Part shown: one piece after another, positions 6,410 to 60,427 of the stretch | Layout of the letters: each line of letters begins with the position of its first letter | Numbering within the stretch: the stretch's first letter is position 1 | Source: Octopus sinensis | Lineage: Eukaryota | Assembly: GCF_006345805.1 (NCBI RefSeq) | Contig: NC_043001.1 | Coordinates: 14,942,001-15,006,000, forward strand | DNA: 64,000 nt | Reading direction: 5' to 3' | Position numbers and translations under genes: made by a program | Notes under the pieces: model-generated | Database searches by the model: none | Seen by the model: the letters and a program-made list of their open reading frames with translations, nothing else | Told to the model about the DNA's origin: nothing

Positions 6410-6482
6410 AGGTTCCAGTGAGTTTCGAACTCACGACCTTCTGTGTGTTAAGCAGATGTGATAACCACTACGCCATGGAACC
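6410..6482 (-). tRNA. tRNA-Val(AAC) gene or pseudogene
   Basis: GGTTCCA TG GCG TAGTGGTTAT CAC A TCTGC TTAACAC ACAGA AGGTC GTGAG TTCGAAA CTCAC TGGAACC T; perfect acceptor and T stems, C.A mismatches in D and anticodon stems. Confidence 0.85.
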
Positions 6483-54950: not shown

Positions 54951-56089
54951 TGTATGCGTGTAGATGTGCTTGTGTGTACTTATGTGGATATTTGTATGTA
55001 GGTTTGTGTGTGTGTGTATGTGTGTGTGTGTGTGTTATGACATTGCAACAATGCAATGTCATATTTCTTATGTCAGATTTCTTTATTGAATGTAATGCTT
55101 ATTTAGTCATATTTTGCTTTGAGACTTTCATGGTGTGATTGTTTATTTTTAGAATGACAATGTAAGGTCGATGTGAAAACCAGATCTGGTCAGTTTGACC
55201 ATAAAATGGGTTGAATACTTTGGCCAGACATGGTCAGTTTAAATGCCATAAAAGTGTTATTTAGAAACACAAATCATAAAAAAAACACTGTACAAAGCAA
55301 CTAATTTCTTACAATATCTAATTTGACAAGATCTCTCATATTTCAAATTCTATTAGACTTTGTATGTGAAACGCCAATAATCTGTTTTATGTCTCAGAAT
55401 GGTAATGGTACCATAGCAGCCATTCTGTGGCATTGATATTTTTGTAATATTTATTTGTTCCACAATAATTTTAGAAGTCAGAGTACAACTCGGTGGCAGA
55501 ACCAATTATGAGATGCAAATTAACAAAAGATTAATGTTCACAACTAGAAATCATGTCGGGAAGAATTATTAACCAATTTTGGTTTAATGTAGTTAATAGT
55601 AACACTGTTGCCAGGCATGGCTGTGTGGTCGAGAGTTCTGTTTTCCAACCACATGGTTTCAGGTTCAGTCCCACTGTGTGCTATTATTGGCAAGTGTCTT
55701 CTGCTATAGCCATGGGCCAACAAAAGCTTTGTAAATGGATGTGTGTGTTTGTGTCATTTTGTCTTGGCATCACATGATACTTGGAAATTATGAAAGTTGG
55801 AAATTATGAAAGTTGGAAATTAAGCATTACTGAAAGTTGGAAATTAAGCATTACTGTTATAAAAACAGTGTTACCCATTTCCAATATTCTGTGACATGGC
55901 TGACTGTGGGGAGATATTAGCTTCCTTGGAAACAGGTGGGGGCTGGTGACAAGAAGGGCACCTGGCTGTAGAAAACCTGCCTCAATAGGCTGTCTGACCC
56001 ATGCAAACAGAGAACAGTGGATGTTAATATGATGATGATGATGATTATGATGACTGACAAAATGAGGAGGTCTTGAGAATGTCCCGAGC

Positions 56090-56345
56090 AAGCTGCAGTG
56101 ACCCTGACACTGTGACTTCTAGTAATGTTGGCCAGAATCAACAAGCTGTACTAATGAGCATCGAAGCTAAGATAATCCGGCAGACTTTCGGTATATCCAT
56201 AGAACTGTAAGTTATTTTGTGAATCCTGTCACTGATATATACACCAATAATGCTGAAGATTTCTGGGCAGGTATACGCAGTGACCGATCAATTATAAAAC
56301 AGAATCAACCACCATCATAAAGTGGTTGCATGTGGGTGAGGCATG
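56090..56345 (+). pseudogene. Merlin/IS1595-like transposase fragment
   Basis: 56198-56281 translates HRTVSYFVNPVTDIYTNNAEDFWAGIRS, resembling the HxTVNHSxxFVDPxTGxHTNxIExxW motif. Confidence 0.6.
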
Positions 56346-56349
56346 GAAT

Positions 56350-56968
56350 CGTCATTATCATCGTTATCATCATCAATGTAGTCATTGTCACCTTCGTCAT
56401 CGTTGTCATCATCGTCATCATCTTTGTCATTATCGTCATCATCGTCATCACCGTCTTCGTCAGCATCGTCTTCGTCAGCATCGTCTTCGTCATCACCGTC
56501 TTCGTCATCATCGTCTTTGTCATCACCATCTTCGTCATCATCATCTTCGTCATCGTTCTTGTCGTCGTCGTCATCATTGTCTTCATCATCCTCCTCATCG
56601 TCTTCATCATCGTCGTCATCATTGTCTTTGTCATCATCGTCTTCGTCATCACCGTCTTTGTCATCATCGTCTTCGTCATCACCGTCTTCGTCATCATCGT
56701 CATCATCATCTTCATCATCGTTCTTGTCGTCGTCGTCATCATTGTCTTCATCATCCTCCTCATCGTCTTCATCGTCGTCATCATCATTGTCTTCGTCATC
56801 ACCGTCTTCGTCATCATCATCTTTGTCATCGTTCTTGTTGTCATCGTCGTCATCATTGTCTTCATCATCCTCCTCATTGTCTTCATCATCGTCGTCATCA
56901 TTGTCTTTGTCATCATCATCTTCGTCATCATCGTTGTCGTCTTTGTCATGTTCGTCTTCGTCGTCGTC
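56350..56968. repeat. Compound (TCA/TCG/TCT)n trinucleotide array with higher-order blocks
   Basis: Visible; open in several frames because of repeat structure. Confidence 0.92.
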
Positions 56969-57727
56969 AGTGGTATTTTGTCTAACTTTATGTTCTGAGT
57001 TCAAATTCCGCCGAGGTCGACTTTGCCTTTCATCCTTTTGTGGTTGATAAATTAAGTACCAGTTGTGTACTGAGGTCGATCTAATTGACCTGCCCCTCTT
57101 CCCCAAAAATTTTGGGCCTTGTGTCTAGAGTACAAAAACATATTTCTCTTGATATGCTGTACCTTTGTTTCAATTAATTTTGGAAATAACGAAGAATTTA
57201 AGTAAGGCAATTCAATCCTTACCAAATTTGTGTTTGGAACATAAATGAACTTTAGCTGGAAGGTTTAAATTTAGATCACTTTGAAACAGGAAGTTTTTTA
57301 TCATAAAACCAGGTGCAGTCTTAGATGAATTGGTATCGAAAGGGTCAGATTGGTGTTACTGTGTTCCCTCTATTTCTGTATGTCCCCTTAATACTTTCTA
57401 CGTTATATATGATTGATTGAGGAACTCCAATGAGACCTACACATGTCCACTGCTTTCGCAAGCTGTCTTTAAAAACCAGATCCACTCAAGCTTGCTACTT
57501 TATTTTAAGAATTATACCTATTTCTTTACTACCCACAAGGGGCTACACAGAGAGGACAAACAAGGACAGACAAACGGATTAAGTCAATTATATCGACCCC
57601 AGTGCGTAACTGGTACTTAATTTATCGATGTCGAAAAGATGAAACGCAAAGTCGACCTCGGCGGAATTTGAACTCAGAATGGAGCGACAGACGAAATACT
57701 GCTAAGTATTTTGGCCAGCGTGCTAAA
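56969..57727. mobile_element. SINE family B copies (+ 56969-57140; - 57517-57727)
   Basis: Nin motif. Confidence 0.82.
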
Positions 57728-58056
57728 CCCTGCAGCATAAAATTAAAAAGCTCGTTTCAAGTTCCTAAAGTTAACCTGCTGTGTTCCTGCTAGAGTGGGA
57801 ACTGGCTAGATTTGATCTCTACTGGATTCCCATTAAAGTGGTAACGAACAGCACATGTAGGAAAAGGAGATGAAATACTAAAAATAGACTCAACCGATCA
57901 TGTTACATCTTTGTAGTTGAGTGTGTTTATGACTCATTGTTAATGGTGTCCCCCAAAGCCTTTGTTTACTTTTGTTTGTAATAGAAAATAGAACAAATAG
58001 AAATCTGTGACTGTGCATTCACTTGAAATATATATATTGCATGCAGAAGTGAGATG

Positions 58057-58151
58057 CTATCATCTCTAGCAGATGAGGTATCCAGTACTGAGGAGTGGCA
58101 GAAATAGCCTGAAACCTGGTCTGGTCTACTGGTCCCATTGCTAGATGATAG
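58057..58151 (+). ncRNA. Full-length type I hammerhead ribozyme (retrozyme-like)
   Basis: CCAGTA-CTGAGGA-GTGGC-AGAAATA-GCCT-GAAACC-TGGTCT-GGTC-TACTGG; distal stem CTATCATCT(CT)AGCA / TGCTAGATGATAG. Confidence 0.8.
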
Positions 58152-58625
58152 GGGTTTGCTACCCTGCTCACAGTTTTATTGGATGCATCTGTGCATCATT
58201 AACCAGCTAGAGGAAATGTCCTGTTGGGGTTAAAAAATCGCAGTAGAGTCTGCTCGAACGGACAGCCATGTTAAAGTGGCTACGAATAATACTTGTCAAA
58301 AATGATTTTGCAATAAAACAAGTATGTAATGAACCCAGCACTTCATCTTGTAAATGAGCAAGGCCTAGACTCTTTGTAGTTGAGGAAATTGTTGAAGATT
58401 AAATCTTTGGATGAAGGGTTTTCACATAGACCAGCAATGAGAGTGATTTGGAAAAATCAAACAGATGAAAGAGCTGAGGAAAGTAGTGATTCAGGTGAAC
58501 AAATACGGTATTTGAAAGATAGGATTATCATTGTTATTCTCTTGATTTTTTTTTGTTTTGCTTTGTGATTCTGTCCATTAGTTTGTCTGCAATGAACAAA
58601 TATGGTAGTTGAGAGATAGGCTTAT

Positions 58626-58657
<32 letters not shown>

Positions 58658-58876
58658 TACTACTATACTACTTATTATTATAGTTCTCTTGAATTTTTTT
58701 AGTGATTCTGTCCATTGGTTTGCCTGCAATCGTTGCTCTTGAGAGCTGTGTGTGCAACTGTTTATTGTTTTGCTTAGGAGCCCTCCGGGTGGAGGGTAAA
58801 ATTAGGCACAGGGGCCCTGGTCTGAGAGGGTTAATGACTAATGTTATTAACATACTTTGCGAATAAGCATTTTAAT

Positions 58877-59299
58877 AATACAAGTTCTATATTTAAGAGA
58901 TGAGGAATTATTTACACTATTTACATTTGACAGATATTTGTCCTCATCTTGTTTGTTGACACGTTTCGGCTGATATACCCTCCAGCCTTCATCAGGTGTC
59001 TTGGGGAAATTTCAAAACTGGGTTCTCAGTTCTAAGGTATTTTTGATGTTATTATTATTATTCACAGGCATATGGCATAGAGGTTAAGAGCGTGGGCTAT
59101 TAACTCCAAGATTCCAAGTTCGATTCCAGGCAGTGACCTGAATAATAATAATAATATCGAAAAATACCTTAGAAATGAGAACCCAGGTTTGAAATTTCCC
59201 CAAGACACCTGATGAAGGCTGGAGGGTATATCAGCCGAAACATTGTGTTAACAACAAACAAGATGAGGACAAATATCCGTCAAATGTAAATAATGTAAA
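58877..59299. mobile_element. Fold-back tRNA-headed element with Penelope-type hammerhead motifs (copy 2)
   Basis: A-box 59073-59083, B-box 59117-59127, CTGATGA..GAAAC at 59209-59241 (+) and 58963-58995 (-); 9-bp TSD CATTTTAAT. Confidence 0.85.
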
Positions 59300-59329
59300 C
59301 ATTTTAATCATCATCATCGTCTCAACAGT

Positions 59330-59888
59330 GACCTATGGAAATAAGCTGTGTTTGAGAAAACCCAGCAAGCCAAGTGAGACCATAACCTCGTTGCTTATGC
59401 CAGATGTGTAACCAGCCCGCTTATGTGTACCTTTCCTTCATTGGACACTAAACTCTGCTTGTGAAGACCTGTTAAAGCAAGTGAAATCAAATTCAATGAC
59501 TGGCATCTGTGCTAGTGGAGCGCTAAGAGCACCATTCGAGCATGATCGTTACTAGCGTCACCTTACTGGCATTTGTGCCAGTGGCACAGGAAAAAATATT
59601 CAAGTGAGGTCATTACCAGTGCCACTGGACTGTCTCCTGTGCAGGTGGCACGTAAAAAACACCATTTGAGCGTGGCTGTTACCAGTACTGCCTGACTGGC
59701 CCTTGTGCCAGTAGCACATAAAAGCACCCACTACACTCTCAGAGTGGTTAGCATTAAAAGGCATCCAGTTGTAGAAACTCTGTCAGATCAGATTGGAGCC
59801 TGGTGGAGCCATCTGGTTCACCAGTCCTCAGTCAAATCGTCCAACCCATGCCAGCATGGAAAGCGGACGTTAAATGATGATGATGATA
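59330..59888 (+). mobile_element. SINE family D (longer 5' part)
   Basis: Tandem units, Meta motif, GGACGTTAAAT(GAT)n tail. Confidence 0.75.
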
Positions 59889-60427
59889 ATTTTAATGAAA
59901 TTATAATAAAACTGTTGGATTGTCAGGTAATTAAGAGGTATTAGCTATCACAAGATACAGATCTGTATAGATGTGTGCTTTGACATCATTGTGTTTATTC
60001 AGCTTCTATTTTTTATGCTGTCATGAGTGGTATAATAGGATCTAATGATCTGCAGGACTTTGCTGAGCTCTGATGTTAGCTTTGACAGGGTTTCTATGAC
60101 TTGGTGCCTTCCTAGCATCGACTGCTCTTCAGTGTGTACTGGTTCTTTTCTTTTTTAAGAAACAATCAACTTGCAAGACAAAGGAGGGACACGAAAAAAC
60201 CCCTAGGCTGAGTGGGAGTGTATTTGAAAGAGAGGGGTATACATGGGTTAACTGGTTACAAATTCATGAAGAGAAAAGGATGTGTAAGTAGGCCCCTTTA
60301 GGCTGAGTTCCATTCTTTTCCTTTTAGGGTCAATAATATATTCCCCAGTTGTGTAAAAGCGTCAGTTCAATCAATTATAACTTGAATCTTGTCAAAACAG
60401 GTGACGTTGTACATCTATTATAAATTA

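Follow-up and report, generated by a model that had tools for sequence, protein, structure and literature searches.

An octopus hammerhead repeat family whose insertion ends look like those of Penelope-type retrotransposons, and a decayed copy of it

As far as the available text of PMC7229834 describes them, metazoan non-LTR retrozymes carry a type I hammerhead in a non-coding unit, which measures 350-390 bases in mussel, and circular retrozyme RNA has been shown for coral, mussel and axolotl; the enzyme that mobilises animal retrozymes and the priming of copying on the circle are left open there. For vertebrates alone, co-occurrence and phylogeny have been used to argue for mobilisation by Penelope-like elements, in a preprint whose accessible text names no sampled mollusc (bioRxiv 10.64898/2026.07.22.740005). 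Penelope-like elements themselves are described, in the part of PMC8557442 at hand, as forming partial tandems, with an inverted 5'-truncated copy, a tail of 30-40 bases at one end and a bias towards (TA)n targets, and a U3-A8 variant of the hammerhead core has been described in them (PMC4209133, in excerpt). In the literature on hammerhead ribozymes, retrozymes and Penelope elements in octopus and cephalopods no report of a cephalopod retrozyme came to light; for the giant squid genome the relevant section of PMC6962438 counts 235 matches to Rfam hammerhead 1, and the available part of PMC8967140 mentions Penelope expansions and no ribozyme. The three octopus families considered below, here called W, S and T, may already be catalogued in Repbase or Dfam or in the supplements of papers.

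We suggest, with a probability of about 0.8, that positions 58001-58298 of the window (the whole stretch of 64,000 bases that was analysed) are a decayed, 5'-truncated copy of family W, that W is likely to be a non-LTR retrozyme probably inserted by a Penelope-like reverse transcriptase and endonuclease, and that the ribozyme of this copy is weak or dead. The type I hammerhead lies at 58082-58132 on the plus strand with an open helix I, and all its core segments were both read from the sequence and recovered with a strict descriptor; they conform to the type I pattern of CUGANGA, GAAA and UH around three helices. On the same strand stem I has six pairs (58082-87/58127-32), the core reads CTGAGGA (58088-94) and GAAA (58111-14), and stem II (58095-99/58107-10) consists of GGC/GCC with the loop AGAAATA, G58095 pairing with T58110 and T58096 being bulged. 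Helix III (58114-16/58123-25) has three pairs in this copy, ACC/GGT, and the GUC triplet at 58124-26 puts the cut predicted from the hammerhead consensus between 58126 and 58127 (span 58124-58127). Stem I is extended over 58057-58151 by an internal loop, a short helix (58072-75/58136-39) and a 12-bp distal helix (58057-70/58140-51); three bases are deleted after 58144, within this extended stem. The hammerhead coordinates given in an earlier note on this DNA are all correct, as re-reading of the sequence confirmed, and its statements that there is no second hammerhead in the 64-kb window and no tRNA head also hold: ARAGORN found no tRNA gene in 56000-60000 and Rfam no tRNA-like head for this copy. 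A tRNA-like match of 51.3 bits is present elsewhere in the window, at 6410-6482 on the minus strand.

Comparison with Rfam, to which the same note had looked for confirmation, did not provide it. No hammerhead was reported at gathering score for the window, nor even at E<=10 over 57000-59500, and the cut-offs of Hammerhead_1, HH9 and HH10 were not reached by this hammerhead, although HH9, on a 171-base cut-out, found the correct register; its score was 12.7 bits, where 52 would be required. Nor does the hammerhead appear in the unconstrained minimum-energy fold of 58057-58290 (z -1.6).

The hammerhead had been placed outside any recognised repeat, in an element extending over 58057-58290, and neither point survives: it sits in a copy of a dispersed repeat (all 40 candidates scored, of 439, match) and homology to other W copies spans 58001-58298. 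This copy, on the plus strand, is 298 bases long, holds one hammerhead and represents about 0.8 of a unit, from unit position 236 to 175, where position 1 is the first base 3' of the hammerhead cut. It is 87% identical to the W majority and has a 3' end of the short ('A') class, directly before which there is a small hairpin, AGCCA..TGGCT (58267-58284, plus strand); by eye, a similar GCCA..TGGC hairpin occupies the corresponding place in S and T. No target-site duplication is evident at the junctions, which sit in an A-rich tract, there are no terminal repeats around the copy, in keeping with the lack of LTRs in non-LTR retrozymes, and no gene-like ORF of at least 150 aa is found near it.

The W copy interrupts an older, TTAA-flanked non-coding repeat (57771-58834, with 181 candidates), which from its TTAA and CCC/GGG ends may be piggyBac-like. 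The left part of this host repeat (57775-58000) follows TTAA at 57771-74 and the right part (58299-58830) precedes TTAA at 58831-34. All nine other host copies examined match both flanks of the insert, and in them the left part passes directly into the right part with no insert between. A 15-mer at 57820, which the earlier note had offered as a possible eroded tandem unit, is indeed present 307 bases upstream, but it lies in the left part of this different and older repeat and recurs in the other copies of it, and so is not an eroded W unit; an upstream tandem unit was accordingly rejected. The surroundings contain further repeats, namely a very abundant SINE-like repeat, two copies of which lie in opposite orientation at 56973-57089 and 57583-57699, and nested inverted repeats at 58906-59304 (one of 82 bases at 98%, one of 53 at 92%) that resemble a young fold-back or MITE element.

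When the genome (2.72 Gb) was searched with 58050-58160, 39 matches besides the window were obtained among the 40 scored, at 82-91% identity, and two other W queries gave 1409 and 1166 candidates with 40 scored each, these candidate totals not being copy numbers. The exact 52-base hammerhead pattern had no match in the genome search; a 28-base core pattern had 10, and its control none. W, the family of relatives that the earlier note had thought worth seeking, is a dispersed, circularly permuted unit of about 360-369 bases, repeated head to tail every 342-392 bases in 27 of 53 regions; in one further region the only period is 413. The majority unit measures 369 bases, has 46% GC and a longest ATG frame of 46 aa, and lacks an ORF for reverse transcriptase plus GIY-YIG; it is in keeping with a non-LTR retrozyme unit, that is, a non-coding one of 150-450 bases with less than 50% GC and a type I hammerhead, and the assignment of the hammerhead to the metazoan retrozyme type made beforehand is supported. 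Folded as a circle, the majority unit reaches -138.8 kcal/mol compared with -101.1 +/- 5.8 for shuffles (0/100; z -6.5). The family is old: its copies have a median identity of 87.6% to the majority, and change stands at 23.5% at CpG compared with 8.4% elsewhere.

Tandem copies of W are short. Two complete hammerheads follow one another in 7 of 116 segments, as in retrozymes, but there is no long array among the best matches, in which the longest segment is 872 bases. Units from the same insertion share non-majority letters at 11-12.5%, compared with 4.5% between units of different loci, which fits one template per insertion and does not separate a circle from a line. Two subfamilies, seen in alignment A1, differ at core position 7, at the stem II bulge, in loop III and by wobble swaps in the distal helix, and all of these differences are compatible with the hammerhead fold.

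The 84 complete W hammerheads are in varied states of preservation, with the core kept in 29, the pair G10.1-C11.1 also kept in 18 and all 14 stem pairs present in 4. In the window hammerhead the core is intact, position 10.1-11.1 is a G.U and three of the four helix III pairs remain. Position 11.1 (58110, plus strand) is T where the majority has C in 56 of the 84 copies, a change at CpG from G10.1-C11.1 to G.U; two A>T changes relative to W stand at 58117 and 58120 (plus strand), the first of which abolishes the fourth pair of a helix III that in the family has four pairs and a four-base loop. The weakness of stem II that had been pointed out previously is therefore partly damage of this copy, the G.U being attributable to CpG decay, and partly a family trait, since the bulged base is found throughout W (T in 69 and A in 12 of the 84). 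When the hammerhead fold is enforced, the energy model places it 5.8 kcal/mol above the minimum of the window copy, the corresponding gaps being 0.1 for the majority, 0.1 for copy L069, 0.4 for L080 and 14.4 for L051, so that some apparently intact copies are also predicted to misfold. The G.U, the weaker helix III and the gap in fold energy make the impairment suspected at the outset probable, and the ribozyme is predicted to be probably weak or dead. With a single hammerhead the copy could not release a unit circle by itself and, lacking also a full unit, it is most likely a dead end.

It could be proposed that the host has nevertheless retained this copy as a functional ribozyme for cutting or terminating transcripts that run through it, and the intact core, which 29 of the 84 W copies also have, would allow it. 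We regard such a use as very improbable, as the copy is no better preserved than its family (87% to the majority against a median of 87.6%), has suffered CpG decay, has lost pairs in stems II and III with the fold 5.8 kcal/mol above minimum, and has no gene-like ORF of at least 150 aa nearby. Sequence covering the locus does occur in read assemblies, whose contigs are uninformative on strand, ends and level: a 215-base contig from run X1, which is RNA by guess, covers 57998-58212 across the cut site with three differences at a depth of 2.5, and 58087-58218 is present without a difference in run X2 (organism B), which also spans the 5' junction, and with 1 difference in run X3 (organism A).

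Two further families came from loci with GIY-YIG matches, of which two adjoined W-related sequences. Family S (L137:55-420; L145-L164) has a unit of 358 bases and its own type I hammerhead, judged from the best 40 of 3383 candidates; family T (L142:255-600, minus strand; L165-L179) has a unit of 360 bases and also its own type I hammerhead, the best 40 of 2653 candidates being 95-98% identical to the query and the family about 98% identical to its majority. W and S are old and T is young, and among the retrozyme-like repeats of this genome T may be the likeliest to be still active. In the S hammerhead the basal pair of stem II is a C.A mismatch and helix III is palindromic, which suggests cleavage as a dimer; that of T has a U3-A8 core and a palindromic helix III of one pair; the base of stem II is non-canonical in all three families (a bulge, C.A and A-U). 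W, S and T are mutually homologous (0/200 shuffles in each comparison) and have in common an insertion geometry with two classes of 3' end, located at about 176 and 222 in 29 of 36 segments of S and at about 176 and 235 in 22 of 25 segments of T.

Between W, S and T both partners have changed in 27 of 32 pairs (0/500 shuffles), in an alignment that was fitted to the model and contains three related clades in 29 rows, including three false hits. Within W alone covariation does not rise above shuffles (58-108 of 500), which is to be expected from neutral decay from few sources, and RNAalifold on 57 W copies gave no consensus structure. Related copies with covarying stems, on which the earlier note had staked its reading, thus exist between families and do not emerge inside W. 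That the window merely resembles a hammerhead by chance might be read from Rfam scores so far under the cut-off, and yet this is scarcely credible: the strict descriptor has one match in the window and none in 100 block shuffles, in 57 of 67 W copies 88% of cells are paired in the named structure, as against 27-53% when it is slid, and S and T have built independent stems. Twelve loci taken from W, S, T and Penelope-like ends all stayed below the Rfam gathering scores, and all these ribozymes would therefore be overlooked by standard annotation.

The ends of W insertions resemble those left by Penelope-type retrotransposons. They were compared in 115 segments away from locus edges, in 77 distinct regions drawn from 100 loci that, as best matches to chosen queries, can favour some ends. 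Forty-six 3' ends fall at positions 160-182 and 47 at 212-240, so that 93 of 115 lie in 14% of the unit, in two windows, at roughly +170 and +229 relative to the cut, and none is within 10 bases of the cut itself. The 5' ends are scattered over the whole unit, 3 of 115 being within 10 bases of the cut; 87 segments cross the cut site and 34 are longer than one unit (up to 872 bases). Inverted pairs are head-to-head in 28 cases and tail-to-tail in none, with 17 of the 28 combining one end of each class. TATA or ATAT occurs within 12 bases after 51 of the 93 window-class ends, against a background of 15%, and the insertions have a one-sided tail of 46-59 bases. Fixed 3' ends, 5' truncation, a 5' inverted copy, a one-sided tail and microsatellite targets together make up a footprint of the Penelope type.

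The genome is well supplied with possible sources of such an enzyme. GIY-YIG matches were found in 147 of the 150 scored of 5029 candidates. The main Penelope-like cluster is abundant and has unbroken frames of about 780 aa, and in 9 of its 18 loci the ORF is followed by a minimal hammerhead, about 60 bases before the 3' end (for example L118, about 2362-2400 on the GIY-YIG strand), with a U3-A8 core and a helix III palindrome as in T. A second, older family (L125, L180-L194), of which 8 of 15 loci were tied to an ORF by tblastn, has at its 3' end, as seen by eye, a minimal hammerhead of the U3-A8 type that contains the palindrome ACCGGT. One GIY-YIG match of the main cluster lies in an unbroken ORF of 764 aa for reverse transcriptase plus GIY-YIG, with a CxxxxCxxC linker (L143:3801-6095), which from its sequence appears Neptune-like when read against the available part of PMC8557442. 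No autonomous partner of W, S or T was found by homology in the two Penelope-like families sampled. Compared with six copies of one Penelope-like 3' end, the 3' ends of W, S and T scored no better than shuffles (best 16/200), and compared with four Penelope-like 3' UTRs hardly better (best 0/100 for S and 3/100 for W, among 12 tests). A likeness noticed by eye between the W 3' end and the second family was not above shuffles and was discarded.

The same footprint would be left if an autonomous Penelope-like element had W as its 3' terminal repeat, or pseudo-LTR, with the W copies being ordinary 5'-truncated insertions of it, and the accessible text of bioRxiv 10.64898/2026.07.22.740005 proposes terminal repeats of this kind as the origin of retrozymes. 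We consider this improbable for W. Upstream of its hammerhead further W sequence follows, for as much as 2.4 units, and 30 W loci have no shared non-W flank. Conversely, 30 GIY-YIG loci contain no W copy, and a W model, applied to the window and to 18 Penelope-like loci, matched the window copy alone. The hammerheads of both Penelope-like families are, moreover, minimal and about 60-70 bases from the end, against a full one 170-230 bases from the end in W.

It is likely, then, that Penelope-type elements inserted W from a self-cutting and possibly circular RNA. A W copy exceeding one unit would be transcribed, two hammerheads would excise one unit and, by analogy with described retrozymes, this unit could be ligated to a circle of about 360 bases. 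A Penelope-like reverse transcriptase, primed at a nick in (TA)n, would begin at a fixed internal site 170-230 bases past the cut site and synthesise copies of differing length, many of which would run across that site; a fixed internal start with variable copy length would give ends away from the cut and inserts of more than one unit. The same insertions might instead have been copied from a linear, uncut transcript longer than a unit, with further units added by template jumps and the hammerhead a mere passenger, a proposal that departs from the foregoing in the template step only. Penelope-like elements themselves make partial tandems (PMC8557442, the part available), the non-canonical stem II base in W, S and T may mean slow cleavage, and the scarcity of 5' ends within 10 bases of the cut (3/115) is in its favour. 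Against it, hammerhead and unit length have been kept in three families despite different stems, and the sharing of letters within insertions (11-12.5% vs 4.5%) fits one template, be it circle or line. A linear template seems unlikely to us, if clearly less so than the terminal-repeat proposal.

Insertion from a self-cutting RNA by Penelope-type elements would have consequences beyond this locus; the window copy is a fossil, and the family is of greater weight than the copy. The three families share the same internal 3' ends, and the Penelope-type footprint in all three, the youth of T and the unbroken Penelope-like ORFs, found together in one genome, make the mobilisation step testable. More tentatively, and with a confidence short of even, a clan of at least three hammerhead RNAs of about 360 bases may spread in a SINE-like manner as circles, its insertions marking the start of a Penelope-like reverse transcriptase beside the small hairpin, about 170-176 bases past the cut, with a tail of 46-59 bases, and T perhaps remaining active. 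If this is true, it would supply footprint evidence for the proposed copying of ribozyme-made circles by Penelope-like enzymes.

Among known hammerheads, that of Schistosoma Sm-alpha has a six-pair stem I, a loop II ending in AAAUA, an internal loop in stem I and a GUC site. The window hammerhead matches Sm-alpha and HH9 in all four features, and differs from HH9 and Hammerhead_1 in a seven-base loop II with a bulge, scoring 12.7-15.9 bits against the HH9 cut-off of 52; unlike Sm-alpha, the window copy has no tRNA-derived head that could be found. A weakened base of helix II is shared by W and the axolotl HHR_Amex2, which according to the available part of PMC7229834 has a U.U mismatch and a two-pair helix III where W has a bulge and four pairs. 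With the metazoan retrozymes of that account W has in common a type I hammerhead in a non-coding unit, a GC content below 50% (46%), strong self-pairing, head-to-tail copies and co-occurrence with Penelope-like elements. It is set apart from them by the bulged stem II base, and by fixed internal 3' ends with head-to-head inversions, which that account does not describe, and from those of coral or salamander by occurring as dispersed monomers and 1.5-mers, with no array among its best matches. EN+ Penelope-like elements (Neptune, Poseidon and Naiad; PMC8557442 and PMC4209133, both in part) differ from W in that W has no ORF, a full hammerhead with a four-pair helix III and a long stem I in place of a minimal one and a tail of 46-59 rather than 30-40 bases, and lacks homology to either of the Penelope-like 3' ends compared with it. 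With these elements W nevertheless shares 5' truncation, partial tandems, an inverted 5' copy, a one-sided tail, (TA)n targets and a type I hammerhead, and its sister T also has the U3-A8 core variant described for them (PMC4209133, in excerpt).
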